Positions 6,968-46,373 of a DNA stretch of 64,000 nucleotides are shown here, piece by piece (the stretch's first letter is position 1; each line of letters opens with the position of its first letter). Made by a program: the position numbers and the translations under genes. Source of the DNA: Candidatus Micrarchaeota archaeon (GTDB taxonomy: Archaea > Micrarchaeota > Micrarchaeia > Anstonellales > Bilamarchaeaceae). The notes beneath the pieces are model-generated. The model was not told the DNA's origin and made no database searches. It was given only the letters and a program-made list of their open reading frames with translations. The stretch is taken from positions 204,019 to 268,018 of the forward strand of contig JAHJCT010000017.1 of assembly GCA_018812715.1 (NCBI GenBank). Reading direction: 5' to 3'.

Positions 6968-8533
6968 TCATTCTATTTGCAATACTCTTCTGCGCCTTGT
7001 CCCTTCATCTTGTGGTTGCGCTTCTGGCACTGTGACGTTTGGTATGCTCCTTGCCCAATCCCCAACAGTGGAAGTATGGTGATTCATTCTCCACGTATAA
7101 ACAGAAATAGCAGAAAGTGTTCTCATATCTATTATTCCATTAACATGAAGATCTGTTCGTGGAGTTCCTAATATGCTGTTATATAATAAGTTAAGATCTC
7201 CATTGAGGCTGTCAAACCATTCTTCATCTGTTCTAGTTGCTGAGAAATTTATGAATGCCTGCACTGCCCTTGCTACTAATCTTCTATCCGTGTCTGATGT
7301 GGTACTTCTTAAGCGTGTCGCTTCTCTTCCAACAGTTGCATATTCATCATGACTTTGTACAAATGCTAAAAACACCTCATCTTCATGCAGGTAGTCATTG
7401 AATATTCTCATAAAAGCATCATATACATCAGTTCTCTCTAATTCAGTTAATGCACTTTCTAAGGAATCGTATCCTTCCGGAAGAGTGCGCATGAGTGTTA
7501 TTATTGCCTCTGGCCTTCCCTGTTGCACTCCTTGATATAATTCAGTACTAAGATTGGCCCAATGGCTTTCAGCAAATTGTTGCAGTGGGGTTTGTCGTAC
7601 TTCGACTGCTAATACTTCTGTAGCTTGCCATACATCAATACTATCCTGGCTTACACCAGTTCCTGTTTCCAAATACCATCTTCTCAAATATAATGCAGCG
7701 GCTGTAAGTGTATCTGCATCCATTGCTACAGTACGGTATGTTCTGAGACTTTGCTCATTTCCAATTCTTGTATGAATCTCTGGTAATTGATCTATCTCTT
7801 GATGATATCTTGCATAATTTTCACGTGCTGCTTCAAATTCAAGAAGATAATACCGGGTAAAAGCAAGTGCTGTGTTTACCAAATTAGCATCTGCATTTAT
7901 CGCAAGTGTTGGGGGTTCTCCTTGTTCTGTCATATATGCCTGAAGCGCAGCATAATTCCCTCCTTCTCTTCCAGCAACAGATGAAAGGAATAATCTGAAT
8001 CTTGGTATTTGATAAAATTCATTGAAAATTGTAACTGCTGCTCCTCTTCTGTTTTCATCTGTAGAAAGAAATTGCTGAATGCGATCTCTGTTAGTGTGCA
8101 AGGTATTTACAGCATTCAATGCATCTGTGCTTCCTCTTGCTCTTAATTGCATTTGAATCCAATCAGTTGAAATTGTTGGTATTGGAGGTTGTTCTTCTAC
8201 TGTTTCTTCTCTTCTTTCTCGTCTGGGCCTTCTCTCACGCCTTGGTGCAGGTTCTTCTACAGCTGGTTCTTCTACTACAGGCTGAGGGTGCAGTTCTCCA
8301 TAAATACGTGTAGCTATTGCCGCTACATTTAATCCATCAATAGCATCAAAATCCTGATCTGCACATCTTCCGCTTGCCCAGTTTTTAGCGCGTCTCAGTT
8401 CTCCTTGCAGATCTTCAACGCTCATTTGATCGTTTACAGTTACTCCTGTGTTATACCTTCTTGCCTCTCCTTCTCCACCTGTACAAACTATTACTATCGT
8501 ATTATTTCGAAGCGTTACTCTGGCATCAACCAT
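6968..8533 (-). CDS. 521-aa Arg/Glu-rich, Lys-depleted protein of unknown function (giant-gene cluster member)
   Basis: ATG at 8533 shares one base with the TAA of the upstream 2854-aa gene (TAATG). PRRERRPRRERRE linker. Only one Lys by my count. The segment EDEVFLAFVQSHDEY resembles the repeat motif of protein A. Confidence 0.8.
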   Translation of the reverse strand: MVDARVTLRNNTIVIVCTGGEGEARRYNTGVTVNDQMSVEDLQGELRRAKNWASGRCADQDFDAIDGLNVAAIATRIYGELHPQPVVEEPAVEEPAPRRERRPRRERREETVEEQPPIPTISTDWIQMQLRARGSTDALNAVNTLHTNRDRIQQFLSTDENRRGAAVTIFNEFYQIPRFRLFLSSVAGREGGNYAALQAYMTEQGEPPTLAINADANLVNTALAFTRYYLLEFEAARENYARYHQEIDQLPEIHTRIGNEQSLRTYRTVAMDADTLTAAALYLRRWYLETGTGVSQDSIDVWQATEVLAVEVRQTPLQQFAESHWANLSTELYQGVQQGRPEAIITLMRTLPEGYDSLESALTELERTDVYDAFMRIFNDYLHEDEVFLAFVQSHDEYATVGREATRLRSTTSDTDRRLVARAVQAFINFSATRTDEEWFDSLNGDLNLLYNSILGTPRTDLHVNGIIDMRTLSAISVYTWRMNHHTSTVGDWARSIPNVTVPEAQPQDEGTRRRRVLQIE

Positions 8534-11500: not shown

Positions 11501-14500
11501 AATGTTTCAAGTTGTGCCCTTACATTTGGCCTTGAGTATATGCGTCTTAATAAATTCCAATAGCCACTAGTCTCCCCTCTTGCCGTTTGTGCTGTGTCGT
11601 ATAAAGATTTCATGATATCTGCTATTCTCTGAGGACTAGAATTCAACAGGTTTTCAAGTTCTACTGCCTCTGTTCTTGCTGTTTGTGCTTCTTGCTCTGC
11701 AACCCTTATCTCTTCTGGTCTTGCCCCTCCTTCTCTAAGTTCTTCTACTCTGACTTCAAGTTCAGTAGCTCTTGTGCGTGCCCTACTTATTTCTAATTGT
11801 GCCAATTCAGGATCTAATACCATATCCAAAGTATTTCTAACTCCTTCGCCTGTTGTACTAAGTACTTCTTCAGCTTCAGGAAGTTCGGCCCTTGCATTTC
11901 TCTCTACTCTATCGCTTCTCCAATTTTGCCAGCGCTCTCTTCCAAATCTATACATTCGTTCAAAGCGTCCCCATCTTACTTCTGGTATTGGCCGAACTGG
12001 TCCACCACCTCCACCCTGGCCCCCACCAACGGTTGTATCAACAGGACCTATTCCTCCTTGTTGCACTCCTGGTGGCCTTGCTCCTCCCTCTTCAGCCATT
12101 GCTCTTACTTCAGGCATCTGCCTTATCATCATTGGACCTTCGCCTTCAACAAGATGAGGCCTGCGTGCCATTTCACTTGCAACAACATCTTCTATGTAAT
12201 AGTTGTAATCATTCACTGCCATTGCAACAGCTTCAGGTTCAAACATTGCTTCTATTTGTGATCTTGCATTTTCCAAAGCACGTTGTGAAAATGGAGTTGC
12301 TTCTCCAGTTTCAAAGTAATGCCTTACACTTGGATTCCTGATAAGTCCATCTATTATTTCTGCAACTTCAGGATTTTCTGCCCTTATATTCTCTAATGTT
12401 TGTTGTGCTGCAGCTCTATGAACTACATTTTCTCTTGCTGTTGTTCCTTCAGGTGTTAGCAATCCCTCAAGCAGCCAATCCAATCTTCCTGGCTGCAATG
12501 TTCCTGTGCTTTCAACTTCTGTTACTGGTCTTCCGCCTCTTGGCCCTGGCGTTGGAGGTTCTGGGCCTCTGAATATCATATCAATTACACTTGTCATATT
12601 TCCTCGTGCAAGTGGTGTCATTTCTCCTGTTACTAGGGCCTCTGGAACATGCATAAAGCTTGTATTTCCAATGCTGCCCGTCTCCATAAACTGCATTATT
12701 CTTCCTTGTACTTCCTCAGGCAGTGTTCTCAACCGTGCCTGTGCACCATCCCTTACAGTCGGGTCTTCACTTCTCAACTCTCTCATGAATTCAAACATTT
12801 CTTCTGGGGTTCGAAGTCTTTGTGCTTCTCTAACTGAAGGAATTTCATTAGGTTCTATTTCAATTGGAACCTCTCGCGGTTCCGGTGCCCTTATCTCTTC
12901 AGCTACAAGCTCAGTTTCTGTTCTTGCTTCTGTTGTTCCTCTTACTGGTCTGGCTCTCATAGCTTGCCATCCACGTGACCCTGCCATATGTGCCCATGGG
13001 AAAGCGGCCATTGCAGTTAGGAAAATTCCCTCCCGCATATTCCCTTCTGAAAAGGCATCAACTGCATGATATCCCATATATCCTGAGAAACCAACTCCAA
13101 TTCCAATGTTTGTATAATTAAGGGCTCTTACCACTTGTGTCATTCTAGTAGCATATGCAGTTCCTTGTGCAAACTGTGCTTCTGTACGTAAAACGCCTGC
13201 AAGTCCTCCGATACCCATAGTTGCTATTATCCCACCAAACATCAACCACGATGTCCAACTTGCTTCTCCTTGTACCCGGTATTCTGTAACTATCTGATCA
13301 AATGCCATAGTTGCAAAGAGCGACCCACCAAAAAGTTGTCCTCCAGGTACGAGACACGCTACAACCCCAACAGCAGTTAGTCCAACTGTAGTCCAAAATT
13401 GGTGGTCTGCTACTCGTTCCTGCATTCGATCTATGATTGCATTAGCATCATCAAATCTTCCCATGCCAACAAGGGCATATACATTGCCTTGATCGACAGC
13501 ATACTCTGCAAACATCTGGCTTCCTGAATCTGCAGGAATTGCGAATATTGATGCTTCAACAATTCTTGCACCATTCAAATCCAACTGCATTCTCTCTTGT
13601 GATCCAGACCCTCCTCTACCAAAGAGAATATAATGCATCGAATCTGTTTGCATTTCTCTGTAAGCATCCCAATAAGATCTATCTGGTTCGCTTCTCATAA
13701 ATTCTGCAAAATCTTCTGGGAAAAATATTGCCTCTCCTAATCGTTCTGCACCTTCAAGGAAGTTTTCAATACCTGTAGCAGTTAAATTCATCGCACTTCT
13801 TCCTTCATATGATGCCATAGCAGTTATCCTATGATCTATAGCAGCTTCATATGCTTCTTCAGCTTCCTGGAACCTTCCCTCCAAAATAAGATTTTGAGCT
13901 CTTTGCAAATCAGTATTACAATCTCTTAAATTATCTTCTGCTAAACTAAATCTATCTCCACCCCCAATTCTTATCATTCTTAGATATTCATCGTTTACTT
14001 CTATCTGCTGTCCTATCTGTGAATAAGCCATGGCTGCCCTGCTTTCTCCTTGCACTAATTCGAGCAGATAACTCATCACAGTTCCGCCTCTTAGCCCCTC
14101 TCCATATATTGGCAGATCATCTGTAGTATATTCTATCCCATCCATCTGTGTAAGCAGAGCATCTACTTCGGTAGAAAGATATATCACTTGCCTTAATCTT
14201 CCCATCTCAAGGTCTGATACTGCTCCAAATGTCTCTGGATGCTGTTCAATATAATCTGCCATTAAAGAAAGGCCATTGCTTGTTGTAGTAAATGCGCCTA
14301 CATCATGGCCATAATCCCATGCTGTTTGCCAAGCTCTTTCTCCTGTTGTTCCTCCTCCGCACATGTTTATGACATAAGCTCGGAATGCTTCAGTAAGTGC
14401 ATCATTTCCTTGCCTAAGTATTACTTCAGCATCTACTACTGTACTTCGTCTATGCACTCTTGTAGCAATTAATGACAATCGGTTCCAATATGTTTCACTT

Positions 14501-17511: not shown

Positions 17512-20500
17512 TTATTCATTTTCTCTGCCTACAAAGCTCAGAGTGTGTCTCTCTATGCCTCTTCTGGCTCTTCCCATATCTGTTATTTGAACAGCGAACT
17601 CTTCGCCTTCACCACTTACAGTGAGTCCATAGTCAGTACGGTGCTGTACGTCCCTTCGTATATCACTTGTAAGAAGTCTATACCACTCTGCTCTTATTGC
17701 CATTTCAGTTTGTTCTCTGTTCCCTTCAAATGCACTTCTTAGCAATTGACCGTCTTCTCCTTCATCAGTGAAGAGCCTTTCCAGGGTTCCGTCCAACATG
17801 CTGTTAAAGTCATTTTCAATAGTATAGAACTGTTGAGCCTCAGCGTTCAATTCTGTACCACTTCTCTCAGTTCCAGTTCCTCTAAATCTTTCTACTTCAT
17901 TGATGTATCCTGTATCAACAGCCCACTGTACACGAACACCTTGTGGATCTGAGAATGGATTATAGTCAGATACATTTCCACCATCTGCTTTGTGCCTTTG
18001 CAGTTCTTCAACAAATTCTTCAAGACGGTATCTGTTGAGTCTGTATCGTGCACCTCTGGTATCGACAAAGCTTGTCAGGAGCTCTCTTATATCCTGGTTT
18101 GTTGGCGCAAGAAGAGTGTATGCCATGCTATCTGAAATATCAAATTCAGAAAGTTCTCTTCTTAACTCCCTTCTTGCATATTGTTCAGAGGTATCTTCAA
18201 CCCATCCATTTGTTCTTGCAGTTGCCATTGCTTCATTGAATGTTTCTTCTAACATTACATCAGTTACAGGAACACGTCTTGTTTGCAATGTTTGTCCTTC
18301 CCCAGCTCTTGCTTGTGTTTTTTCTTCCCAAAGAGTAACAAATGCTTCTCTATTTTCTGGTTTGAGGTACTCGGTATGCTCTCCCCTTTCAGCCACTAAT
18401 GGAAGCATAAGTCTTCCTACTCTATCTCTTCCTTGTGCAAAGACAAAATCCACTAATCCAAGATCTGCTATATTATAATTATCCATTACTCTTTCTTGTT
18501 GCTCAGATACGAGGAATCCTCTTTCTACCCATTGCCTTGTATGTTCATTCATATAGTCATAGTCAACTGTTGCCCTCGTTCCCTCTTGTGCCATTAAATA
18601 ATCAACAAATTCATTTGTCATATTCCTGTTGAGTTTAAGGCCATCGGTTATCACAGTATATTCTACATCGATTATACAACAGAACTGATTTCCTGATTCC
18701 CATTCATCTTCAATTGCTAGTGGTTCCCAGTTTTCTACATCATCCATACTTTCAATACCAAGTTCTCTGCATGAATTAGGTATTACTAATCCCGGTGTTG
18801 CTGGAGGCCTTTCAACTGCTTCTCCTGTTCCCTCGGCTACTTCATTAGTTCCTTCAGCTACCTCGCCAGTTCCTTCTGCATTTTCTTCTCTAGGCGGAGG
18901 TTGTGCTCTAGAGGTAGAACCTGCACTTGTTTCCTGAGAACAATTAGCTATGTCATCATCATCCAGTTCGTTTACATCTCTAACATGTTTCAATGTTCTT
19001 CTCTCTTGGAAGAATGTAAGAACACCTTCATTATCATGTTCAACTTGATTATCCCTTAGCCAGTCTAATCTTTCCTCACCTGTAACTCCATATGCAGTTG
19101 TGTAATAACTATCCTCTCTTTCTGCAAGTCGTTCTGGAATGTCGTAACTATCATTTATCATTCTCTTATTTGAGAGCTCACCTTGCATCGGAGACCACCA
19201 TTCCCAAGGTGCTCGGTCGAAGTGGTTTCCAAAATGATTAAAGCTCCAACGCCATGGCATCGCATTCCATGAGAATGGATTGTACCAATGACCTGTAGTT
19301 GATGTACCAATGCGATAGGTCCAAGGTTTGTACCATGCTCCGTTTGGTGTTGTTGTCATCCATTCATTTGGTGATGTGAACCATGCAACACCAAAAGATC
19401 CTATCAAGTATGCTTTGAGTGCTCCTTTCCAAAGTCCCCTCAACCATCTCGGGTAATGTTGGTATGTGTGAGCCTTTCCTGTAATTGGATTTCTACCAAC
19501 AACTTGCTTATTCCAATTTCGTTTCTTAAGATCATCAACTGTTTCTCCAAAGCCCCAACTTGAAAGTCTTCTAAGACGCCCACCTCTAAAATTACCTTGT
19601 GACTTTCCTATCCATGCTTCGCTTGTAAATAATCTCCAGAACCATTTATCTTTGAACTTTTGCCATTTTCCTACAGTTACTTTTGGAGACGGATCCCAGC
19701 TTTCTTTTGTAGCTTCCCAGATCGTTCTTGCTATAACAAATTGACCTTGAGGTATTTCACCTAAGTTTTCAGCAGTTCTTTTATGAAGCATTTCAACTGA
19801 TTTTTCAGCTGCTTTTCCTAATGGCTTGGAATACTTATTTTCTATTTTTACCAGCATCTCTTCTAATGAAGCACGAGGATACTTTCTAGTTTCTATTGCC
19901 TTTACAACTGTCAGCATTCTTTTTCTTACTTCATCAGGCAATTCTGCTCCTTCTACTTTTGTTCTTAATGCAGTTGCTTTTGTATCAAATGCTTCAAGCT
20001 TATATCTGAAAAGTTCTTCGCTTTCACCTTTACCTTTTCGTTCTTGTATCACTGCATCATATTCTGCTTTAGTAATACTTCTTGCTCTAAGCAGTTCATC
20101 CAATTGTTCTGCAGTTTTTGTTCTCAATCCTTGTTCTGTTGAAGGAATACCAAACAATTGCTGGCAGTCGTCCATACGATCAAGAACTTTCTTTGTATCT
20201 TTCATCAATTCACTGATAACTGGATTGCCTAGCCACTCTCCTGCTCTATTTGGAAGTTCATGAATTAATTCTGTACTCACTTCTCTGCAGTCAAGCATAT
20301 GCTTTTTGAAGTTTTCAGAGTATGTCCGTACTACATTTTCAAATCTGCCATTTTCAGTTCCTTGTATTCCACCTAATTCTGCTGAAAGTGTATCAAATAT
20401 TTCTTTTGCTTGAGTATACTCGTCCTCTATTCTCGCCCCCCTAGCAGACAAACTCAGTCCACGGGTATTAAATTCACTAATTCGCTGTCTTGCAATTACT

Positions 20501-21903
20501 AATTCTTGTTCTGCAGTATCCTTCTCTTCAGTAGCTTTTCTTTCTGCATCCTCAATCTGTTTTTGTGTTGCTTTTGCCTTTCCTTCTGCAACAAGCTGTT
20601 TTAGTTTTACAACTTTATCATACTGTTCTGTTTTTTCTACAACAGTTGCTTCGGCTCGTTCAACCAGTCTCTCTGCATCTGCCCTTTCGTTTCTAAATTC
20701 TGAAATTTCGTCATCTATTGCATCTACTCTTGCTGCACTTTCTTCCATGACGCTTTCAGCAGCAGCTCTCCGTACCATCATGTCTTCAACAGTTTGTCGT
20801 TGGCTTGGTCTGCATGGTCCAAATCCTTCAACATCAACAAAATGACCTGTTCCTGGAATACCTAGCCCTTCAACTGTCTCATTTGTAGGTGTTAAAAGAA
20901 TTGCACGAACGAATTGCCTGAAATTATCTGCAGCCATATCTATTGCTATAGATGTTCTTGATTCAAGATAAGCATCCACATAACTTCCATCAAGTACACG
21001 ACGATTAGTTTCTTGAGTATTCTCCGAGTCCATGCTTCTGGTCCCAGAAAGTTGCTTTAAAACACTACCTATGAATTCTCCTTCTTTTCCTGGGCTGAGT
21101 CTTTGTGCGACATTTTCAAGAAATCTAAAGAATGCGTCTGGAGGTAACGCTACTCCTTCTGGCCATGTTTCATGAGTCCACAATGATTCATATAATTTAT
21201 CTCCCCTTTCATCTCTTACACAATTTCCTTGTTCATCTTCTTGCTCAATCGGATTCCCCTTATCATCTAATTTAAATCTAGATCCGATCATTTGCGAATA
21301 AATAATATCAATTCTATCAGCATCAAAATCTTCGACTCTTCCTTCACTTAACTCTTGAGCAAGTCTTTGCCTTACGGCATACATTCTTTCTGCATACGCA
21401 GTATCAAGTTCTTCAAGCGGTGTCGGCACCGTCGGTTTCTTCAACCCATCAATAAATTCTTTTCTGCATACAATCTCTCTTATAAGCATATCAAAGCCAG
21501 AACTTGTCCTGCCCTGTCCTCTTCGTATTGCATCTACCAATTCTAATGTAAATTTAGTCAAATACTCTGCATTTGCTGTATCAGCACCGCTTTGCGGGGT
21601 TCCTCCGGCACCATGCCGTGTATCTTTATCTTGCCCTCGTTCTCCTCTCAGTTCTTTTAATCTTTCTTCTTTAGCAAATTCAATTCTTGCGTCTTTATCT
21701 GCTCTTTTTCGAGCTTTATGATCTTTTCTTAATTCAGGACTTAATGCAGCCCCCAGAACGGGCACTCTCTCTGCCATATATTTGTAACTCTTTGCAGAGC
21801 GACTTTCTCCACCTCTTGCCCAATCAAATACTCTTTGCCTTATACCAGCTTTCTCAGCCTGTTTATCTCTTCCCTGAGCCCTATCTATAACACTACCCGT
21901 CAT
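17512..21903 (-). CDS. giant protein C (1463 aa), unknown function, with coiled-coil N-terminal part, extremely Trp-rich segment and conserved C-terminal domain
   Basis: ATG at 21903 with GGAGG 12 nt upstream. About 18 Trp in ~150 aa (KWQKFKDKWFWRLF...PWRWSFNHFGNHFDRAPWEWW). C-terminal AEWYRLLTSDIRRDVQHRTDYGLTVSGEGE matches protein B. Confidence 0.9.
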   Translation of the reverse strand: MTGSVIDRAQGRDKQAEKAGIRQRVFDWARGGESRSAKSYKYMAERVPVLGAALSPELRKDHKARKRADKDARIEFAKEERLKELRGERGQDKDTRHGAGGTPQSGADTANAEYLTKFTLELVDAIRRGQGRTSSGFDMLIREIVCRKEFIDGLKKPTVPTPLEELDTAYAERMYAVRQRLAQELSEGRVEDFDADRIDIIYSQMIGSRFKLDDKGNPIEQEDEQGNCVRDERGDKLYESLWTHETWPEGVALPPDAFFRFLENVAQRLSPGKEGEFIGSVLKQLSGTRSMDSENTQETNRRVLDGSYVDAYLESRTSIAIDMAADNFRQFVRAILLTPTNETVEGLGIPGTGHFVDVEGFGPCRPSQRQTVEDMMVRRAAAESVMEESAARVDAIDDEISEFRNERADAERLVERAEATVVEKTEQYDKVVKLKQLVAEGKAKATQKQIEDAERKATEEKDTAEQELVIARQRISEFNTRGLSLSARGARIEDEYTQAKEIFDTLSAELGGIQGTENGRFENVVRTYSENFKKHMLDCREVSTELIHELPNRAGEWLGNPVISELMKDTKKVLDRMDDCQQLFGIPSTEQGLRTKTAEQLDELLRARSITKAEYDAVIQERKGKGESEELFRYKLEAFDTKATALRTKVEGAELPDEVRKRMLTVVKAIETRKYPRASLEEMLVKIENKYSKPLGKAAEKSVEMLHKRTAENLGEIPQGQFVIARTIWEATKESWDPSPKVTVGKWQKFKDKWFWRLFTSEAWIGKSQGNFRGGRLRRLSSWGFGETVDDLKKRNWNKQVVGRNPITGKAHTYQHYPRWLRGLWKGALKAYLIGSFGVAWFTSPNEWMTTTPNGAWYKPWTYRIGTSTTGHWYNPFSWNAMPWRWSFNHFGNHFDRAPWEWWSPMQGELSNKRMINDSYDIPERLAEREDSYYTTAYGVTGEERLDWLRDNQVEHDNEGVLTFFQERRTLKHVRDVNELDDDDIANCSQETSAGSTSRAQPPPREENAEGTGEVAEGTNEVAEGTGEAVERPPATPGLVIPNSCRELGIESMDDVENWEPLAIEDEWESGNQFCCIIDVEYTVITDGLKLNRNMTNEFVDYLMAQEGTRATVDYDYMNEHTRQWVERGFLVSEQQERVMDNYNIADLGLVDFVFAQGRDRVGRLMLPLVAERGEHTEYLKPENREAFVTLWEEKTQARAGEGQTLQTRRVPVTDVMLEETFNEAMATARTNGWVEDTSEQYARRELRRELSEFDISDSMAYTLLAPTNQDIRELLTSFVDTRGARYRLNRYRLEEFVEELQRHKADGGNVSDYNPFSDPQGVRVQWAVDTGYINEVERFRGTGTERSGTELNAEAQQFYTIENDFNSMLDGTLERLFTDEGEDGQLLRSAFEGNREQTEMAIRAEWYRLLTSDIRRDVQHRTDYGLTVSGEGEEFAVQITDMGRARRGIERHTLSFVGRENE
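18820..18882 (-). repeat. three tandem 21-bp units encoding (V)AEGTxE heptads inside giant protein C
   Basis: Plus-strand units ttctcctgttccctcggctac / ttcattagttccttcagctac / ctcgccagttccttctgcatt. Protein reads AEGTGEVAEGTNEVAEGTGEA. Confidence 0.7.
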
Positions 21904-29835: not shown

Positions 29836-30723
29836 TCACCTTAGAAGATATTCAAGAACAGCCATTCTCAACGGTATGCCGTAATGCGCCTGTTCGAAGT
29901 ATTTTGCCTGTGGCATTTCATCAATAGAACTCTCTATTTCATTTATTTTAGGAAGTGGATGAAGTATTGCCAGGTCTTCCTTTGCATCTTTTAGATCTGC
30001 TTTTTTCACTCTGAACTCTTCCTGAACTCGTTGTGCTTCATATGGGTCAGCAAATCTTTCTGCTTGTATCCTACAAACATACAACACATCTGCATCAGAG
30101 TAATTTGGTGTATTATCTATCTTTACATTCAATCCAAACTTCTTATTTACTTCATCTAAATATCGGGGATCCATCTCAAGTCCTTTAGGAGAAACAAGTG
30201 TAATGTTTGCATTAAACATTGCAAGTCCATAAACTAGTGATCTCATGGTTCTTGCGTGTTTCATGTCTCCGAGCAAAGTAACGTTCAATCCTTTTATCCT
30301 TCCCTTACTTTTTCTTATTGAAAATAAATCAATCAGCGTTTGTGTTGGATGTTGGTTTCCTCCATCTCCCCCATTTACAACCGGTTTATTACTTACACTT
30401 GCAGCAAGCCTCGCAGAACCTTCTTTTGGGTGTCTTACTGCTAAAGCATCAGCATATCCAGTCACAGTCTTTATAGTGTCAACAAAACTTTCGCCTTTTT
30501 TCAAAGAGCTGCTTTCAGGCAAAAAATCCAATATTTCCATCCCGCATCTCATTGCAGCCGATTGAAAGGATAATTTTGTTCTTGTAGATGGTTCAAAAAA
30601 TAATGTTGCCAGTATTTTTCCCTTCAGATCAACTTCGTGTTCCTTGTTATGTATTTTTTCCGTTGTGTCAAGAATGGCCTCTATATCTTTCAGTCCAACA
30701 TCTCTTATAGAAATTAGATCCAT
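29836..30723 (-). CDS. pyrB: aspartate carbamoyltransferase catalytic chain
   Basis: FFEPSTRTKLSF, HPTQ and HPLP motifs. ATG at 30723 is preferred over the track start at 30783. Confidence 0.9.
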   Translation of the reverse strand: MDLISIRDVGLKDIEAILDTTEKIHNKEHEVDLKGKILATLFFEPSTRTKLSFQSAAMRCGMEILDFLPESSSLKKGESFVDTIKTVTGYADALAVRHPKEGSARLAASVSNKPVVNGGDGGNQHPTQTLIDLFSIRKSKGRIKGLNVTLLGDMKHARTMRSLVYGLAMFNANITLVSPKGLEMDPRYLDEVNKKFGLNVKIDNTPNYSDADVLYVCRIQAERFADPYEAQRVQEEFRVKKADLKDAKEDLAILHPLPKINEIESSIDEMPQAKYFEQAHYGIPLRMAVLEYLLR

Positions 30724-30796
30724 ATAAGCACCATAGACTATTGAGAATATAGTTTTATATACCGCTACCAACCCATAATTCATATAAATCTAACGT

Positions 30797-33700
30797 ATGT
30801 CATCTATACGATGCGCTATGAGTAGATCGTTGTTATTACTGGTTCTAAGTGTATTATTGCTCTCAAGTTTTGCTTTTGCTGCAACTCTTGAAGTTACTAC
30901 AGGCACAAGTTGTGTTGGTTCTCCTGATGGAACATTCACAACGATCCAGGCTGCAATAAATAACGCATCTACTGGTGATGTAGTAATTGTGTGTGATGGC
31001 ACGTATACAGAAAATGTTGAAGTGAACACATCGATAAACCTATCAGGTGAAACTCCTGATGTTACTGTTGTAGCTTTCAATGATACATTACCTGCAATTA
31101 CTACTTATGCCAGCAATGTTAACATTACTAATTTTACTGTTACTGGTGCAGATGGCATTGGTGATTATTCATGCGGATTATTAGTAGGCCGAGTATTAAC
31201 TGGCAAATTTCCTGATACTGAAAATGTTACTGTCTATAATGTAATAGCAGAAGATAATGATAATGGATTTTGTGTTTATGATGATACTGTTTCTTTGGTT
31301 GGTCTTGTAAATGTAACAGCAGATGGAAATGATATCGGCATTTTTCTAACATCATTGTCTACTACTTATGGTCCAAATTATGTGTTTGTAATTAATTCTA
31401 CCATGACTGACAACGCAGTTGGATTAAAGCTCTATAGAACTAATTATACATTTGTATATAACAACACATTTTATGCCAACAATCGTGATGCGGGCCATTT
31501 CGATATTTCAGGTGGATTTGGCGTATGGTCACAATCGCATGTAAGAAATCTTGATTTCATGTATAATAATATCTCTGAGAATGATGCTGGTTTTCTTGCT
31601 GGCTGTGATTGGCCTTGTATAACTCTTGGAGAACACCTGGCTGATGCAAGAATAGCTTTCAATAATTTCACTGATAATGTAATGTTGTCACTTGTAATGG
31701 ATCAGGATCATATTGATCCGTCTTCTCCTATAAATGTCACTGGAAATCGTTTTACTGGCGATACATTATTCCATTTTGTTACAGATGATATGTACAATCT
31801 TACTGTAGCTGATAATTATTTCAGCGATGCTGTAGCCTGTATTGGTTTTGGCTTTACCTCAGGACCGGTAGATATTTTTTCGAACTACATAACTGATTGC
31901 CAGGTTGGAATGGCTTTCTTAGAGCTTGAAGAAAATACATTGTTTGTGTATGACAATGAACTTGTTAACAATTACTTCAATTTTGGTGTTCTTTCAGCCT
32001 TTGGAAGCGGATATATCCAGAATATATCTACTAACAATACAGTTGATGGCAAGCCAATCTATTACTTTGTCAATGGGACCACTGGAGATGGAAATACTAA
32101 TTTCAATCCTGTTCCTGCAGATGCCGGATATGTGGCTTTAATTCTTACAAATAATTCAAGAGTTGAAAATCTCTTATTAGAACATAATATTAACGGGTTA
32201 GTTGCTCTCGAGTCAGTCAATGTCACTGTTGATAATGTAAGCATGGTGACTAATTTTTGGGGGGCATTCCTGGGAACAGTTAATTCTACTTATAGTAATG
32301 TAGAAATTAGCGACTGTAATAATCCTGTTATCACCCCATACCTGTCAACATATCTTGGTTATTTCATGTGCGGTTTGATTACAGCAGCATTCAACAATAC
32401 GTACAATAATTTTTCAATCTATGACCAGGAGGAGTGTTATCTTCTTGCAATGAATGCAACTGGATATCAAGGTTGGGCCCCTGGTTGGGGAGATACGATC
32501 TACGCAAACAACTTCACCATCGGTTATACTGAAACCACTGGTCTTATCAATTACAGATACTTTGAAATTCACGGCGGCGGATCAAGTACAATGAACCTCA
32601 CATGGCTTGTCCCAAAAGATCTTTCATTATTTAATGCAACAGTTTTACTAGATGACTTTATTGTCTTGATAAACGACTCTGATCCTGCAGTTGAACCTTA
32701 TTTCGAAAACCCGGCGAATGTTACATTATTGGGGGCTGGCTGTCCTTTGACATATTACAATGTAACTGGTTTCCCAACAACTGAAGCAGCCATACTCACA
32801 GCCGCAACAGAATTTACTCCAAATATCATCTCAGCTTGTAATGGCGGGCTAACAACCTTTGAAGTTCCTGGATTTACTGGCTATTTTGTTGCTGGACCAG
32901 AAGATGATGAAGATGATGGGGAGAATCAGATATCATTAGATTATGAAAGACTGGAATGTCCAGAAAATGGAGTTTTATTAACTGCAACTCGTGGCAATAC
33001 GGTTCTTTCTAATGTTGAATTTAGAGTTTTATTCAATAGTTTATTCTATGATCTTATTCCATCTGCACCTGGAGAGTATCAACTTATGCTAACTGCAGAA
33101 GGGGATTATGATATTACTGCAAGAAAGAGCAGTTACAACGATGACAGCGTTTCATTTACTTTTGAACTCTGTGAAGTAGATGAAACACATTTAGCGTGTG
33201 TGAATTCTGCATGTGTTAGAGTGAGTGGTGCTGGTGAAAACCTCTGTTCCTCAAGTGCAGATTGTGAAGAAACCCCAGTATACGAATGCTATTCAGATGG
33301 CGATTGCGATGATGCATACTTCTGTGATATTCCAGCAGGACAAATCGGAGGAACATGCGAACCAGTAACTGGCGAATGCGGCTATCCACAAAATCATACC
33401 TGGGTGCAATATGAATGTGGCAATGAAGTGGGATGTCAGCCATGCCCAGAAGGAGAAGTTTGCGTAAATCATGTATGTGCTGAAAGATTACTTACTGGTC
33501 CTGAAACCGGCTTTGTAGGAGACAATGTAACACTCAATGGAAAAGAAAACGGTGGGCCGTGTGCACTTTGTGATGTTGTCATACTTAATCCTGTGGGCGA
33601 AACCCTCTACGGCAAAACAAATACTAATGGTGATCTTAATCTTCCGTTAACTATGAAAGGAAATTATTCCATTGGTCTTCTTGCTCCAGATGGTGCAATC

Positions 33701-33862
33701 GTATCAACAATAATTGTTGAAGCACTTCCAAAGGCCCAACCTTCAGAACCATCAAAACCAACACAAGAAATGCCACCTGACTATACCTGGCTTTGGTTCT
33801 TGATTTTACTCCTGATATTGGCAGCAGCATTCTTCTATTTGAGAAAAAGAGGCAAAAAATGA
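30797..33862 (+). CDS. large surface protein: signal peptide, right-handed parallel beta-helix (PbH1/NosD-like) repeats, beta-sandwich, Cys-rich module, C-terminal TM anchor
   Basis: N-term MSRSLLLLVLSVLLLSSFAFA (start 30797 or 30818). TIQAAINNASTGDVVIVCDGTYTENVEV start of the beta-helix. Many NxS/T sequons. C-terminal WLWFLILLLILAAAFFYLRKRGKK. Confidence 0.8.
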   Translation: MSSIRCAMSRSLLLLVLSVLLLSSFAFAATLEVTTGTSCVGSPDGTFTTIQAAINNASTGDVVIVCDGTYTENVEVNTSINLSGETPDVTVVAFNDTLPAITTYASNVNITNFTVTGADGIGDYSCGLLVGRVLTGKFPDTENVTVYNVIAEDNDNGFCVYDDTVSLVGLVNVTADGNDIGIFLTSLSTTYGPNYVFVINSTMTDNAVGLKLYRTNYTFVYNNTFYANNRDAGHFDISGGFGVWSQSHVRNLDFMYNNISENDAGFLAGCDWPCITLGEHLADARIAFNNFTDNVMLSLVMDQDHIDPSSPINVTGNRFTGDTLFHFVTDDMYNLTVADNYFSDAVACIGFGFTSGPVDIFSNYITDCQVGMAFLELEENTLFVYDNELVNNYFNFGVLSAFGSGYIQNISTNNTVDGKPIYYFVNGTTGDGNTNFNPVPADAGYVALILTNNSRVENLLLEHNINGLVALESVNVTVDNVSMVTNFWGAFLGTVNSTYSNVEISDCNNPVITPYLSTYLGYFMCGLITAAFNNTYNNFSIYDQEECYLLAMNATGYQGWAPGWGDTIYANNFTIGYTETTGLINYRYFEIHGGGSSTMNLTWLVPKDLSLFNATVLLDDFIVLINDSDPAVEPYFENPANVTLLGAGCPLTYYNVTGFPTTEAAILTAATEFTPNIISACNGGLTTFEVPGFTGYFVAGPEDDEDDGENQISLDYERLECPENGVLLTATRGNTVLSNVEFRVLFNSLFYDLIPSAPGEYQLMLTAEGDYDITARKSSYNDDSVSFTFELCEVDETHLACVNSACVRVSGAGENLCSSSADCEETPVYECYSDGDCDDAYFCDIPAGQIGGTCEPVTGECGYPQNHTWVQYECGNEVGCQPCPEGEVCVNHVCAERLLTGPETGFVGDNVTLNGKENGGPCALCDVVILNPVGETLYGKTNTNGDLNLPLTMKGNYSIGLLAPDGAIVSTIIVEALPKAQPSEPSKPTQEMPPDYTWLWFLILLLILAAAFFYLRKRGKK

Positions 33863-34425
33863 AGCTTGTAGTTATTGAGGGTATAGACGGCTGCGGGAAG
33901 GAGACTCAGATAAAACTCCTAAAAGAAAAGTTCCCTAACGCAGTTGTATTCAAATACCCAACGAAACGCTATTCTTTACTCAATGACTATCTTGAAAAAA
34001 AAGCTGAATTAAACCCAAAAGCCCTTTTCCTTTTATTTCTCTCAGATATAGCCAATGAGCAGAAAAAAGTAAAAAAAACCCTTGAAGATGACAAACTTGT
34101 AATTCTGGATCGCTATGTTTTCTCAACTATTGCCTATGAAATTAATGGCATCTCTTACAAACAAGGAAAAAAAATTGTCGAAGATTGTGATTTTCTAAAA
34201 CCCGACATGGTTCTTCTCCTTGATATAACCTCAGAAACTTCACAAAGTCGTAAGAAAAAGCAAAAACAGCTCGATCGTTATGAAGAAAATGCAGAATACC
34301 TCGAACAAGTAAGATCAAATTTTTTGAAACTCTCTGAAGAAAGGTTTTTAACACCTAATTGGCACAGAATTGACGCTAGCAAGGATATAAATTCAATCCA
34401 TGCAGAAATAATGAAACTTCTTTAG
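33859..34425 (+). CDS. tmk: thymidylate kinase
   Basis: MKLVVIEGIDGCGKETQ P-loop and DRY motif (LDRYVFS). ATGA overlap with the upstream surface-protein gene. Confidence 0.85.
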   Translation: MKLVVIEGIDGCGKETQIKLLKEKFPNAVVFKYPTKRYSLLNDYLEKKAELNPKALFLLFLSDIANEQKKVKKTLEDDKLVILDRYVFSTIAYEINGISYKQGKKIVEDCDFLKPDMVLLLDITSETSQSRKKKQKQLDRYEENAEYLEQVRSNFLKLSEERFLTPNWHRIDASKDINSIHAEIMKLL

Positions 34426-34609
34426 CTGCGTTCGTCTAGTCCGGCCAAGGATAGTGGACTTTCACAAACTTTTTGAAAAACAGCAAAGAACTTTGTTCTT
34501 TGTGCCCCATGAAAACCATTCGGTTTTCATTCGGGAAGTTTGATCAAAAACCAAATCTCGAAAAGTTTGAAGAACTCCATTGACCTGGGTTCGAATCCCA
34601 GACGCAGCA
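34425..34609 (+). tRNA. tRNA-Glu(UUC) interrupted by a 110-nt intron at the canonical 37/38 position
   Basis: Acceptor GCUGCGU/ACGCAGC+A. D-loop AGUCCGGCCAA typical of tRNA-Glu. Anticodon arm GUGGA-CUUUCAC-UCCAU after splicing. T-arm CUGGG-UUCGAAU-CCCAG. Exons 34425-34464 and 34575-34609. A T-run follows. Confidence 0.85.
34465..34574 (+). other. tRNA intron with canonical helix-bulge-helix-bulge-helix splice motif
   Basis: 3-nt bulges CAC and AAC are separated by 4 bp (CUUU/GAAG). These are flanked by the anticodon stem and an 8-bp intron helix AAACUUUU/AAAAGUUU. Internal hairpins are CAAAGAAC-UUU-GUUCUUUG and AUGAAAACC-AUU-CGGUUUUCAU. Confidence 0.75.
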
Positions 34610-34707
34610 TTTTTTCTTGAATAGCAGATGCCATTCACCAATATGTAATTTGCTCAAAAAATAACCGTACCAAACTATTTATAGCGTAAGGGCATATCTT
34701 TGAAACA

Positions 34708-35181
34708 ATGAAGGCCATACTTTTCGAGCCGAAATACCAGAAAGCAGTGCTTGAACTGAACGAACTTGCATTGAAACGATCGAAATACATAGGAAAAACA
34801 GTGGACTCTAACTGGCACGATGATCTCGTAAAAATAAAGGAATTATATTTGGATAATAATGGTGCTTTTTTGCTATGGCTTGTTGGTGACAAGCTAATAG
34901 GAATGGGTGGTCTTCTCAAAGTTGATACAAATACCGCCAATATCAAGAGAATAAGGGTACATCCAGATTACCAGCATAAAGGATTATCTAGCGAAATTTT
35001 AGCAGAACTGGAAAAGAGAGCGAGGGTGCTTGGTTATAATCGACTAATCACAAACGTTGCTAAAGGCAACATCCCTGCAGAAAAAATGTTTCTTAAAGCT
35101 AATTTCAAACCAGTTGAAGAAAAACATTTCTTTTCTGTACTCTGCACTGTTTTTGAAAAAAAGTGCGAAGTACTTTATTAA
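34708..35181 (+). CDS. GNAT family N-acetyltransferase
   Basis: IRVHPDYQHKGLSSEILAELEKRA (R/QxxGxG/A-type acetyl-CoA motif). TTTATA box about 27 nt upstream of the ATG. Confidence 0.75.
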   Translation: MKAILFEPKYQKAVLELNELALKRSKYIGKTVDSNWHDDLVKIKELYLDNNGAFLLWLVGDKLIGMGGLLKVDTNTANIKRIRVHPDYQHKGLSSEILAELEKRARVLGYNRLITNVAKGNIPAEKMFLKANFKPVEEKHFFSVLCTVFEKKCEVLY

Positions 35182-36251: not shown

Positions 36252-36296
36252 CTTGAAAATAAATTTTCAAGATCAGCCAACTTTGCATAAGCAAAG
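36252..36296. terminator. two AT-rich perfect hairpins between convergent transcription units
   Basis: cttgaaaat-aa-attttcaag (36252-36271) and ctttgc-ataa-gcaaag (36281-36296), bracketed by the direct repeat agtgggctttc (36239-36249 and 36295-36305). Confidence 0.35.
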
Positions 36297-36548
36297 TGGG
36301 CTTTCCAGTTAGCCTTGACATGAATATAAGGAGCCAATATCCGCTACTCAATCCTGGATCTTATAAGCACGGAACGATACATTTAGGGCTGCTTCTTCCG
36401 ATCTGACCCGGTTCATATATAATCCCGCCACATAAGGCAGGACGTCAACGCTTAAGATACTGGGCATACATCCACGGCAAAACGCCCCAGACCTTCGAGT
36501 CGCCTAAGGGGATTTGCGATGCCGGGACCCCTAGCCCCGCTCTAGCCC
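36290..36548 (-). ncRNA. signal recognition particle RNA (7S/SRP RNA); 3' end uncertain (36235-36330)
   Basis: ORF-free GC-rich island. The minus strand starts GGGCUAGAGCGGGGCUAGGGGUCCC with two 5' hairpins. It has a helix-6-like UCCUGCC-UUAUGU-GGCGGGA. It has the helix-8 signature CCGGGUCAGAUCGGAAGAAGCAGCCC (compare the universal GGUCAGGUCCGGAAGGAAGCAGCC). Confidence 0.7.
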
Positions 36549-36569
36549 ATTATTATAACGAAATTCTCC

Positions 36570-41400: not shown

Positions 41401-42369
41401 ATGCGAAAAATGTCAAATCTAGAGTATTCATTTATAGTCAAAGAACTTTCTTCTTTACTTGGTAAGCACTTCTCAAAAATACGCAAAATGAACGAGGATA
41501 CCTATCGTATGAAAATAGGAAACATTGAAATTCTTTGTCAATTAGGCGTCCGCATCCACAAAACTAAATATATAGAAGAACCAGAACCACATGACAAATT
41601 TGTACAAAAATTAGAAAAAGAACTTGTAAATGCAAAGCTTCTCTCAATAGAACAACTAAACAACGATCGCATTATTTCATTCAATTTTGATAAAGGAAAT
41701 CTAGTTTTTGAAATGTTTGGAAAAGGCAACATTATCCTGTTGAAAGATGAAAAAATCATCTGTGCTTATAAAAATGAAAAATGGGCAGACAGGGAAATTA
41801 AGGTTGGCCTTGGTTACTCCCCACCAAAGAAGCCTTCAGATGAAATCGAAGTTTCAGATCGATATATCATAGTATCATTGACAAAACTTCCTCTGGGAAA
41901 GGAGTATGCACTTGAAGTACTGGCAAGATTGGGAATAGATGAAAAAACACCTGGAAACAAACTTAACACAGAACAACTTTCTAAACTTGAAAAAGAAATT
42001 GAAAAAATCAAAAAAAGCTGCCAGCCCTGCATGTTCATTCAAGATGGAAGACCATTTGATTTCTCACTTACAGAACTATCCTCTTATTCAACCCACGAAT
42101 CTAAGAAATTCCAATCTCTCAGTGAGGCAATTGATGAGTTTTATTATGCACGTGAAGCACCAAATGAACAACTTGAAAAACTGAAAAAAAGACTAGAAAA
42201 ACAGAAAGAAAGATTGGAATCTTTGAAAGGGGAAGAAAAAGAAAATCGGCAGAAAGGCGATCTGATATATGAAAATTACAGTAAAGTAGAAGAAAGTATA
42301 AAAGCTGCCAAAGCGGATAAAATTAAAAATTTAAATAAAAAAGAAAAATCAGTTGAAACCGACCTTTAG
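41401..42369 (+). CDS. NFACT-N (FbpA/Rqc2 N-terminal) domain protein with coiled-coil tail; short form
   Basis: N-term LEYSFIVKELSSLLGKHFSKI...RIISFNFDKGNLVFEMFGKGNIILL matches the NFACT-N pattern. At 322 aa it appears to lack the C-terminal half of typical archaeal homologues. Confidence 0.5.
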   Translation: MRKMSNLEYSFIVKELSSLLGKHFSKIRKMNEDTYRMKIGNIEILCQLGVRIHKTKYIEEPEPHDKFVQKLEKELVNAKLLSIEQLNNDRIISFNFDKGNLVFEMFGKGNIILLKDEKIICAYKNEKWADREIKVGLGYSPPKKPSDEIEVSDRYIIVSLTKLPLGKEYALEVLARLGIDEKTPGNKLNTEQLSKLEKEIEKIKKSCQPCMFIQDGRPFDFSLTELSSYSTHESKKFQSLSEAIDEFYYAREAPNEQLEKLKKRLEKQKERLESLKGEEKENRQKGDLIYENYSKVEESIKAAKADKIKNLNKKEKSVETDL

Positions 42370-44927: not shown

Positions 44928-45039
44928 AATGCAGGAGGCGCTTGAATCGAGCTTCATTACAGTCAGTTTTTTGCCTCACTTTTCAAGGATCAGTTTTTTG
45001 GTTCTTTTTTCCTAAAAAAGAACAATGCAGGAGGAAGGA
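44928..45039 (+). repeat. direct repeat copy 1 (core 44951-45039) flanking the VapBC cassette
   Basis: The 89-bp core is 88/89 identical to 45812-45900. It contains a perfect 10-bp hairpin gttctttttt-cct-aaaaaagaac and starts and ends with AATGCAGGAGG. Confidence 0.85.
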
Positions 45040-45087
45040 CATTCGTAATTAGTACAGTGCAGACCCCCGAAATCTCGAGGACAGAGT

Positions 45088-45507
45088 TTATAACTTCTGC
45101 CCCAGCATTTCAATGAGTTCTTTTGTTGTGAGAACCTTTACCCCTTTCTGTTTCTTGAAGTGTTTATCATCACTCCAAATAGGAGCTTTGGTTGCCAAAG
45201 CTGCCGCAATGAACGGGACATCAGCTGAATCTATTTTTTCCATTATCCCCTTTGCTTCTCCCATGTATATAACAATTATTTTATCGTCTAGAATAGTCAT
45301 TTTTGAAAAAAGCTTGTTCAGAATCATCTCGAGATCTGTTTCTGATATTTTTGCTTTCTTGAGAATCTCCTTCTTATGATTGCCTAGTTCTTCCATTGAA
45401 AAGCCAATCGTAATGAGTTCTCCATCGAAATGGGTGATGATTTTCCTGGAAACCCCATCTCGCACTAGGGCAGCGATGATTCTGTTGGTATCTACAACAA
45501 GCCTCAT
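45088..45507 (-). CDS. vapC: PIN domain ribonuclease (VapC-like toxin)
   Basis: MRLVVDTNRIIAAL start and a late SDDKHF acidic motif. 4-nt overlap with the upstream antitoxin gene. Confidence 0.7.
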   Translation of the reverse strand: MRLVVDTNRIIAALVRDGVSRKIITHFDGELITIGFSMEELGNHKKEILKKAKISETDLEMILNKLFSKMTILDDKIIVIYMGEAKGIMEKIDSADVPFIAAALATKAPIWSDDKHFKKQKGVKVLTTKELIEMLGQKL

Positions 45508-45725
45508 TTTGAGAACCTTTTTCTCATTTTAGCTTTTACGTCATGGCCTATTCTCTCGGCATCTTCTTCAGTCATCTTACTGTTCTTCAGAACTTCGTCC
45601 ATCCAATGCAGCTCTCTAATTTTCTTCTCGAAAGCCTGTCTGGCCACGTCGCTCCATTTGAGCTCTGAATGGGCAATCATCTCTTTGTAGAGTTCTTCTG
45701 GAATCGAAAGCGTCATGTTAACCAT
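45504..45725 (-). CDS. vapB: VapB-like antitoxin (RHH-type N-terminus)
   Basis: MTLSIPEELYKEM beta-strand/helix start. Coupled to the PIN gene. Confidence 0.5.
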   Translation of the reverse strand: MVNMTLSIPEELYKEMIAHSELKWSDVARQAFEKKIRELHWMDEVLKNSKMTEEDAERIGHDVKAKMRKRFSK

Positions 45726-45786
45726 AATCTCACCTATTTGTATTATGTGCTAACACATATTTAAAGCTTTGCTACAAAAATGAGAA

Positions 45787-45900
45787 AATGCAAGAAAGGC
45801 ACTCGAAGCAAGCTTCATTACAGTCAGTTTTTTGCCTCACTTTTCAAGAATCAGTTTTTTGGTTCTTTTTTCCTAAAAAAGAACAATGCAGGAGGAAGGA
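45787..45900 (+). repeat. direct repeat copy 2 (core 45812-45900)
   Basis: See copy 1. The upstream extension is more diverged (aatgcaagaaaggcactcgaagca versus aatgcaggaggcgcttgaatcga). Confidence 0.85.
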
Positions 45901-46177: not shown

Positions 46178-46241
46178 CTTCGCTACTCCTGCAGAAACTT
46201 TCCTTAGATGAAACAATTGTTAAAGTTTCATCAAACTTCCT
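46178..46241. repeat. 64-bp perfect direct repeat, copy a
   Basis: cttcgctactcctgcagaaactttccttagatgaaacaattgttaaagtttcatcaaacttcct is identical to 46295-46358. Contains the 8-bp inverted repeat gatgaaac/gtttcatc. Confidence 0.9.
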
Positions 46242-46294
46242 GAGTTTTCCTCAGGATTGGAGTTGCGAATCGTGAACGGATTGCCGTTCAGGTA

Positions 46295-46358
46295 CTTCGC
46301 TACTCCTGCAGAAACTTTCCTTAGATGAAACAATTGTTAAAGTTTCATCAAACTTCCT
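46295..46358. repeat. 64-bp perfect direct repeat, copy b (period 117 bp)
   Basis: Identical to copy a. The 53-bp spacer carries two perfect 6-bp hairpins (cctgag-ttttc-ctcagg and gaacgg-attg-ccgttc). Confidence 0.9.
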
Positions 46359-46373
46359 AAGAAAAAATAAAAG
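46359..46373 (-). terminator. oligo-T stretch after the ferredoxin gene
   Basis: The minus strand reads CTTTTATTTTTTCTT directly after the stop codon. Confidence 0.4.

Follow-up and report, generated by a model that had tools for sequence, protein, structure and literature searches.

A tRNA-Glu gene overlapping the end of tmk in a Candidatus Micrarchaeota archaeon is very probably functional and split by a 110-nt bulge-helix-bulge intron

We analyzed a 64-kb window of a Candidatus Micrarchaeota (DPANN) metagenome-assembled genome (MAG), in which a tRNA-Glu(UUC) gene begins on the last base of tmk, the gene for dTMP kinase. Very probably, this tRNA-Glu gene is functional in the Candidatus Micrarchaeota archaeon and is split by a 110-nt canonical bulge-helix-bulge (BHB) intron that appears to be a diverged passenger copy of a lineage-wide intron family called family A (family A and family B are names defined in this analysis). 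The gene and its boundaries, the geometry of the BHB, the identity of the spliced product to intron-less orthologs, and the family relationships among introns could all be established directly. The features that define the locus are as follows.

33859-34425, plus strand: coding sequence of tmk (dTMP kinase), 188 amino acids (Pfam Thymidylate_kin, 3.2e-32).
34425-34609, plus strand: tRNA-Glu(UUC) gene, a 185-nt pre-tRNA body with no encoded CCA (ARAGORN with introns allowed: tRNA-Glu(ttc), 110-nt intron).
34425-34464, plus strand: exon 1, comprising the acceptor 5' strand, D arm, anticodon stem 5' strand, and loop through A37 (identical to exon 1 of loci L038 and L078).
34461-34463, plus strand: anticodon TTC, within exon 1.
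34465-34574, plus strand: 110-nt BHB intron at position 37/38 (ARAGORN, pairing check, and fold).
34575-34609, plus strand: exon 2, comprising C38, the anticodon stem 3' strand, a 4-nt variable loop, the T arm (intact by motif scan), the acceptor 3' strand, and the discriminator A.
34610-34615, plus strand: T6 run straight after the discriminator base, from its sequence a probable archaeal termination signal.
34454-34476, plus strand: 5' strand of the hBHBh' motif, with h GUGGA (34454-58), H CUUU (34459-62), bulge CA^C (34463-65, predicted cut after 34464), and h' AAACUUUUUGA (34466-76); pairs verified.
34558-34580, plus strand: 3' strand of the hBHBh' motif, with h' UCGAAAAGUUU (34558-68), H GAAG (34569-72), bulge AA^C (34573-75, predicted cut after 34574), and h UCCAU (34576-80); pairs verified.

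Joining of the two exons (34425-34464 and 34575-34609) yields a 75-nt RNA that ARAGORN folds into a flawless cloverleaf. The acceptor stem is 7 bp in length and its first pair is G34425-C34608. After splicing, the anticodon loop reads CUUUCAC, a loop of 7 nt with the anticodon UUC at positions 34-36. A sequence-only reading of this DNA had described a tRNA-Glu whose canonical BHB intron exceeds the mature tRNA in length (110 as against 75 nt), and this description is upheld by the ARAGORN call and by the pairing, which is standard throughout. The same reading had placed the 5' end of the tRNA on the last base of the tmk stop codon, and indeed G34425 is shared by the TAG and the acceptor stem, a 1-base overlap.

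The gene is easily missed. ARAGORN in its default run reported zero tRNAs across the 64-kb window, and with introns allowed its sole call was tRNA-Glu(ttc) at 34425-34609. At gathering thresholds, Rfam reported no tRNA in the window, its sole match being signal recognition particle (SRP) RNA. In an Rfam E-value search of positions 34300-34750, the unspliced gene gave a partial match of 13.8 bits to the tRNA model, covering the T arm alone, as would be expected of a tRNA interrupted by 110 nt. By motif scan, tRNA-Glu alone in the window has an intact T arm with matching acceptor strands. ARAGORN sets the intron one base rightward; this is a C/C ambiguity that leaves the spliced product unchanged, and the coordinates 34465-34574, which are those of the sequence-only reading, were chosen over the shifted placement because they obey the strict BHB rule.

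The exon-intron junctions form a strict 3-4-3 motif, in which two 3-nt bulges lie on opposite strands around a 4-bp H helix. The hBHBh' was written out by hand and each pair was then asserted to be standard by script. All four positions of H (CUUU/GAAG) are paired, one of them as a G.U, while h is the 5-bp anticodon stem and h' extends over 11 bp. With the cloverleaf and BHB enforced, the pre-tRNA has a folding energy of -59.3 kcal/mol.

Comparison with related loci supports the predicted splice junctions. In L038, an intron-less tRNA at 3064-3138, located 2 nt 3' of tmk, is base-for-base the same as the predicted 75-nt spliced product, and it scores 59.4 bits on RF00005 (gathering score 29). 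The exons of L078 are likewise identical to those of the window, and these are interrupted at 37/38 by an unrelated 70-nt family-B intron. As strongly as sequence evidence allows, these comparisons indicate that the splice junctions are placed correctly and that purifying selection acts on the gene.

The arrangement is common in the lineage. With 29 aligned tmk homologs as query, 76 loci were collected from genome assemblies and 21 from metagenomes, nearly all of them labelled Micrarchaeota, Micrarchaeia, or Bilamarchaeaceae; the nearest tmk relative in the collections searched has 76% amino-acid identity. The mature tRNA was aligned to each locus by long-gap alignment, and in lower-scoring loci the intron boundaries may be off by a few bases, such that the counts below are approximate. 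A tRNA-Glu(UUC) adjoins tmk on its downstream side in 70 loci. Twenty of these 70 genes have no intron, 31 have one, 14 have two, and five have three, as in L074 (2888-3131) and L062 (3116-3415). Among the 70 loci, introns occur at 37/38 (34 introns, 27-221 nt), in the D loop around positions 13-17 (18 introns, 13-137 nt), around positions 20-25 (eight introns), and in the T arm around positions 56-61 (13 introns). The 110-nt intron of the window is the fifth longest of the 34 at 37/38, and is no outlier. Each of the 28 introns that the 47 best-aligned genes have at 37/38 shows an H helix of CUUU/RRAG with 4/4 positions paired and keeps both 3-nt bulges, while the rest of the intron varies. 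Of 47 related loci, 39 have a T-rich run after the tRNA-Glu.

The distance from the tmk stop codon to the tRNA, measured in the 29 loci with a defined stop, is between -1 and +4 nt in 15 and at most 30 nt in 26. Specifically, it is -1 nt in the window and L014, 0 nt in L020 and L025, 1-4 nt in 11 loci, 7-29 nt in 11 loci, and more than 60 nt in three. The overlap with the stop codon is the extreme of a tight tmk-tRNA linkage that is ordinary for the lineage.

The interior of the window intron is related to that of other introns in these genomes. We compared 43 introns by all-against-all Smith-Waterman local alignment with a clustering cut-off of 22 (shuffled pairs scored 6.8 on average and 13 at most), and obtained two large families, A with 24 members and B with nine. 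The window intron scores 21 against L006, 20 against L021, and 19 against L003 and L009; its best score is just below the cut-off and well above the shuffled maximum. The building block of family A is a 31-nt hairpin unit, AAACUUUUU-NGG-AAAAAGUUU-NAUCAAAAAC, which is followed by a second AAAAGUUU arm that forms h' and, ahead of the 3' splice site, by RRAG. Family-A introns of the short type (48-53 nt) have the form GAAACTTTTT-GGG-AAAAAGTTTC-ATCAAAAAC-TGCCTG-AAAAGTTT-GAAG-NN. The elements are a 10-bp hairpin, then a conserved linker (CAAAAAC), then a repeat of the 3' arm; this second arm pairs with the 5' end of the intron to give h'. The window intron fits this short form at both of its ends (CAAACTTTTTG ... 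GGGAAGTTTGATCAAAAACCAAATCTCGAAAAGTTTGAAGAA), and may be written as CAAACUUUUUG ... GGGAAGUUUGAUCAAAAAC ... CGAAAAGUUUGAAG, which is the family-A unit split by a 57-nt insert. By BLAST, segment 72-91 of the intron matches L021 with 95% identity. A possible second copy of intron sequence at 41439-41456 (17/18 nt) was dismissed as a chance match, as it lies inside a coding region and forms no hairpin.

The insert and the hairpins it carries are located as follows.

34476-34532, plus strand: insert of 57 nt that the 48-53-nt family-A introns lack; it occupies the apical loop of the family-A 5' hairpin and holds hairpins A and B (alignments to L006, L009, and L021).
34483-34503, plus strand: hairpin A, GCAAAGAAC-UUU-GUUCUUUGU, with eight Watson-Crick pairs and one G.U (fold).
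34509-34530, plus strand: hairpin B, AUGAAAACC-AUUC-GGUUUUCAU, with nine Watson-Crick pairs, extended by CCC/GGG to 34505-34535 (fold).

The predicted fold of the intron has three hairpins (A, B, and a small third one) closed by a 12-bp stem. The two additional internal hairpins noted earlier are thus both recovered, B being Watson-Crick throughout and A containing a single G.U. No second BHB, as for a nested intron, was seen around the 57-nt insert in a non-exhaustive inspection by eye. Hairpin-B-like modules occur midway in other long introns, as in L012 (GAAAAACCC-ATTC-GGGTTTTTG) and in the D-loop intron of L062 (ATGAAACC-TTTC-GGTTTCAT). Hairpin A and the exact 110-nt sequence have no homolog elsewhere in 100 loci or the window. 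From these alignments, the window intron appears to be a diverged member of family A with nested hairpin insertions, and long introns in general look like short ones grown through such insertions.

The intron is read most simply as a selfish or neutral passenger that is tolerated because the BHB is kept intact, the BHB being its only constrained part. Several observations weigh against the account of a functional, spliced gene with such an intron. The unconstrained minimum free energy fold of the pre-tRNA, at -68.0 kcal/mol, prefers a slightly shifted register and non-native pairing of the D and T arms. A T5 run within the intron (34470-34474) could work in part as an archaeal terminator. Folded by itself, the intron reaches -36.2 kcal/mol (z = -5.2), a stability that no sequence among 200 shuffles equaled. 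In 19 copies of the family-A hairpin, compensatory changes occur in the outer five pairs, with 33 two-sided cells as compared to 13.3 +/- 3.2 in shuffled alignments; none of 500 shuffles reached this number, and slid controls were lower. Along with the recurrence of the hairpin-B-like module in L012, L062, and other long introns, this stability and this covariation may reflect selection on the structure of the intron, and hence some role for it.

Such a role could be that of a functional, stable (circular) noncoding RNA, for example a guide or protein-binding RNA, which is in line with a function after excision suggested by the sequence-only reading. The tRNA-Trp intron of Haloferax volcanii, ~100 nt in length, provides a precedent. 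As cited in PMC3326292, this intron and a 65-nt tRNA-Trp intron of Sulfolobus are stable circles, and the Haloferax one carries a C/D box guide RNA. These introns and the window intron have in common that they are BHB introns comparable to or longer than the usual size, are well structured, and are expected to be circularized. The window intron differs in interrupting tRNA-Glu, in having neither C nor D boxes, in matching no Rfam family, and in not being conserved in orthologs. The nearest approaches to a C box, AUGAAAA and UUGAUCA, have two mismatches each, and inspection of the intron found no CUGA (D box) and no RUGAUGA (C box). A covariance search of the intron against Rfam, which had been suggested as a check, matched no family. 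In the E-value search of 34300-34750 the matches were noise only: the best match to the intron was on the wrong strand (E = 2.5-6.6), and the only snoRNA-like match was on the opposite strand as well (E = 5.9). A self-splicing group I or II intron was rejected, as no Rfam match was found at the gathering threshold or at E <= 10 and the intron is 110 nt long, whereas such introns measure at least a few hundred nt.

The comparison of orthologs also speaks against a function. In genomes whose exons match those of the window completely, the site is empty (L038) or holds an unrelated intron of 70 nt (L078), such that a conserved independent role is unsupported, and intron content turns over among close relatives. 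Neither hairpin A nor the whole intron sequence recurs in the loci searched. Palindromic DNA can stay complementary without selection on the RNA, and its complementarity alone is no proof of such selection. A circular excised intron is expected here from the general archaeal pathway; excised archaeal tRNA introns are circularized as a rule and are mostly unstable (PMC3326292). We therefore consider it unlikely that the excised intron is a functional RNA, and favor the passenger reading.

The passenger reading agrees with the turnover of introns among close relatives. L008, L009, L010, L011, L014, and L083, whose tmk DNA is 84-88% identical, have differing intron sets (52 nt; 51 nt; D-loop 78 nt plus 51 nt; 104 nt; D-loop 82 nt plus 103 nt). 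L010 and L083, with 88% identical tmk DNA, differ by a 78-nt D-loop intron, and L008 and L009, with 87% identical tmk DNA, have wholly different intron sets.

Members of each family also occupy different sites. Near-identical family-A sequence is found at 37/38 in L006, L009, and L021, among others, and as a D-loop intron in L003 and L081, with just a few splice-adjacent bases fitted to the local exon. Of family B, there are D-loop copies in L004, L008, and L010 and copies at 37/38 in L023, L078, and L087. The tRNA-Glu gene of L074 contains three family-A introns, in the D loop, at 37/38, and in the T arm, each with the core AAACTTTTT-NGG-AAAAAGTTTAATCAAAAAC. Similar introns at different positions or in different tRNA genes, as is characteristic of transposed introns, are thus seen for the families, though not for the window copy specifically. 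The family-A unit also occurs outside of introns, directly 3' of tRNA-Glu in L004 and of a tRNA-Leu gene in the window that is described below.

The exact 31-nt family-A unit, AAACTTTTTAGGAAAAAGTTTTATCAAAAAC, is present in intergenic gaps of three AT-rich IMG/VR contigs (L098-L100), for which a rough hand estimate gives a chance expectation of about 1e-4 matches. L100 has three perfect tandem copies (4157-4249), L098 at least two (about 180-260), and L099 one (1553-1583). Open reading frames (ORFs) of L100 encode trypsin-like/PDZ, C2H2 zinc-finger, and Exo_endo_phos domains. Pfam searches of the ORFs on these viral contigs gave eukaryote- or giant-virus-like domains and no archaeal signal.

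This pattern of turnover matches intron transposition in Thermoproteales, as far as the summary of it in PMC4090602 goes. According to that summary, the Thermoproteales also have tRNA genes with up to three introns and show rapid gain and loss. They belong to TACK rather than DPANN; in the genomes studied here, the families occupy varying sites of a single orthologous gene, the tRNA-Glu next to tmk, and have a 31-nt hairpin unit as their building block. The pattern is consistent as well with the heavy disruption of tRNA genes in ARMAN-2 and with its broad-specificity epsilon2 endonuclease (PMC3239211, PMC5829648). Micrarchaeota tRNAs are heavily disrupted by introns, and the endonuclease cuts both strict and relaxed BHBs (PMC3239211, PMC5829648). 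A close known counterpart of the window intron is in the ARMAN-2 pre-tRNA-Ile(UAU), whose 25-nt intron at 37/38 has a strict hBHBh' and is cut by the epsilon2 EndA (PMC3239211). The two share the insertion site, the 3-4-3 geometry, cuts two bases into each bulge (predicted for the window intron), and a Micrarchaeota host, but the window intron is 110 rather than 25 nt long and has an interior with three hairpins. Our literature searches found no description of such intron families in Micrarchaeota.

The processing of the window transcript may be outlined from established archaeal tRNA biology. The gene would either have a promoter within the final ~40 nt of tmk or be transcribed as the 3' part of the tmk transcript, and transcription would end at the T6 run at 34610-34615. 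RNase P would presumably cut the 5' end exactly at G34425. The anticodon arm and the intron would fold into the strict hBHBh', in which EndA would cut after A34464 and A34574, two bases into each 3-nt bulge. An RtcB-type ligase would then join the exons to give the 75-nt tRNA and circularize the intron, and CCA would be added post-transcriptionally.

That the promoter lies inside tmk or that the tRNA is co-transcribed, as the sequence-only reading had argued, follows logically from the 1-base overlap. For the first of these options there is one candidate element.

34385-34392, plus strand: candidate archaeal TATA-like box ATATAAAT inside tmk, -40 to -33 from the tRNA 5' end, a hypothetical element recognized from its sequence.

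Its spacing is like that of the TATA-like boxes of L018 and L024, in which the tRNA has its own intergenic region, and roughly like the spacing 5' of the SRP RNA gene. For 47 tRNA-Glu genes, upstream A+T content was profiled by position and TATA-like 8-mers were scanned for; neither gave a TATA-like signal at a fixed distance or a peak at -25 to -45. The sole upstream peak in these 47 loci, at -90 to -79, probably reflects a motif conserved in the tmk coding sequence. A recurrent ATAATG was rejected as a promoter, as it corresponds to the conserved Ile-Met of the tmk C-terminus and lies at a variable distance.

Promoters within coding sequence would not be exceptional in this genome. Upstream of tmk, pyrB (29836-30783, minus strand) and a 1021-amino acid beta-helix ORF (30797-33862, plus strand) are divergent and separated by a 13-nt gap (30783-30797). 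If both starts are right, promoters inside neighboring coding sequence are normal in this compact genome, and a tRNA promoter inside tmk would therefore be unremarkable. Downstream of the tRNA, a TATA-like ATTTATAG at 34676-34683 is located ~25 nt 5' of the ATG of a GNAT acetyltransferase gene (34708-35181), which suggests a leaderless mRNA and offers a local example of promoter spacing.

The second option, co-transcription with tmk and its upstream partner, may apply as well and would have a consequence for tmk. By translation, tmk starts at the ATG at 33859, which forms an ATGA overlap with the upstream 1021-amino acid ORF, and stops at the TAG at 34423-34425; its product is 100% identical to a protein (P0001) labelled 'dTMP kinase [Candidatus Micrarchaeota archaeon]'. 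A cut by RNase P at G34425 in a co-transcript would leave a tmk message that ends in UA and has no stop codon, so that one transcript would yield either an intact tmk message or the tRNA and not both. Mitochondrial transcripts are punctuated by tRNAs, and their genes abut or overlap these tRNAs. There too the 5' end of the tRNA coincides with the end of the upstream ORF, and the cut would leave an incomplete stop, UA. The context here differs in being archaeal, and an internal promoter is equally possible.

The window contains a second interrupted tRNA gene, which came to light through three matches to the family-A hairpin motif near 45-46 kb and was then reconstructed.

46192-45887, minus strand: tRNA-Leu(CAA) gene with three introns.
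46154-46040, minus strand: 115-nt intron of tRNA-Leu at 37/38 (score 32 against a family-B tRNA-Glu intron).
46029-45980, minus strand: 50-nt intron of tRNA-Leu in the variable arm (score 26 against family A, with the family-A hairpin inverted).
45957-45903, minus strand: 55-nt intron of tRNA-Leu in the T loop (score 33 against the T-loop intron of L049).

Once its introns are removed, 86 nt of tRNA-Leu remain, which form a class II cloverleaf with a variable stem of 5 bp and are called as tRNA-Leu(caa) by ARAGORN; neither ARAGORN nor Rfam reported it in the window. The intron scores are against tRNA-Glu introns of other genomes and compare with a shuffled maximum of 13. Because the tRNA-Leu introns are homologous to tRNA-Glu introns of other genomes, the same families appear to have settled in different tRNA genes of this genome. 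Both tRNA genes in the 64-kb window are missed by Rfam and by tRNA finders in default mode, and tRNA complements of Micrarchaeota MAGs will consequently be underestimated, as has been suspected for DPANN (PMC5829648).

Both ends of tRNA-Leu are duplicated. A 67-nt direct repeat (99% identical) at 46178-46244 and 46295-46361 comprises the first 15 nt of tRNA-Leu and 51 nt upstream of it, and its copies are 117 nt apart. Either copy may hold the true 5' end of the gene, or the interval may be a further D-loop intron. At the other end, the 3' end of tRNA-Leu and its trailer are present as two direct copies of 104 nt with 95% identity, at 44936-45039 and 45797-45900. The copies flank an 861-bp cassette that encodes a PIN_2-domain protein (45088-45507, 1e-27) and an overlapping 73-amino acid ORF (45504-45725). 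The cassette looks like a toxin-antitoxin module inserted at the tRNA-Leu 3' end with target duplication.

This cassette bears on another explanation, in which the intron is kept as protection, since it would break up a conserved integration site of mobile elements or viruses (a Randau-Soll type of proposal, which is mentioned in PMC3239211). That tRNA genes have been targeted in this window, as by the PIN-toxin cassette at 44936-45900, and that introns are very frequent in the lineage is in keeping with protection, but this evidence is purely circumstantial, 20 of 70 orthologous tRNA-Glu genes are intron-free, and integration at tRNA-Leu occurred despite its three introns. We regard protection as quite improbable. 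It is more improbable still that the tRNA-Glu is a decaying pseudogene, disabled when a repeat element inserted into it and now neither spliced nor used: although standard tools give no call, the intron contains nested insertions and a T5 run, and another tRNA-Glu copy could lie beyond the 64 kb of genome searched, the exons form a flawless cloverleaf and are 100% identical to those of intron-less (L038) and differently interrupted (L078) orthologs, the 3-4-3 BHB is perfect with an 11-bp h', synteny and the terminator T-run are kept, and the same arrangement with an intact BHB is seen in 28 of 28 intron-bearing relatives.

Two other features of the window may be recorded. The SRP RNA is at 36296-36550 (minus strand), and the sole match to it within the Rfam SRP clan is Bacteria_large_SRP, at 65.2 bits (gathering score 60). 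Two very large ORFs are on the minus strand, at 8533-17097 (2854 amino acids) and 17512-21903 (1463 amino acids).

The functional, intron-split tRNA-Glu gene favored here is itself ordinary and of a known kind, and the fast-moving modular intron families are the more interesting part. We put forward tentatively, at a little under an even chance, that a few intron families exist in Micrarchaeota whose small, modular BHB introns are made up from a covarying hairpin unit of 31 nt, and that these introns undergo active gain, loss, and expansion and move from position to position (D loop, 37/38, variable arm, and T arm) and from one tRNA gene to another. If this is true, the tmk/tRNA-Glu locus, with zero to three introns in genomes that otherwise differ little, would provide natural snapshots of the acquisition of archaeal tRNA introns, and the 110-nt intron of the window would be one such snapshot, a family-A copy with nested hairpin insertions. 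The orthologous series of ~70 genomes, with zero to three introns and with families at different sites, opens the gain and movement of BHB introns to comparative genomics.

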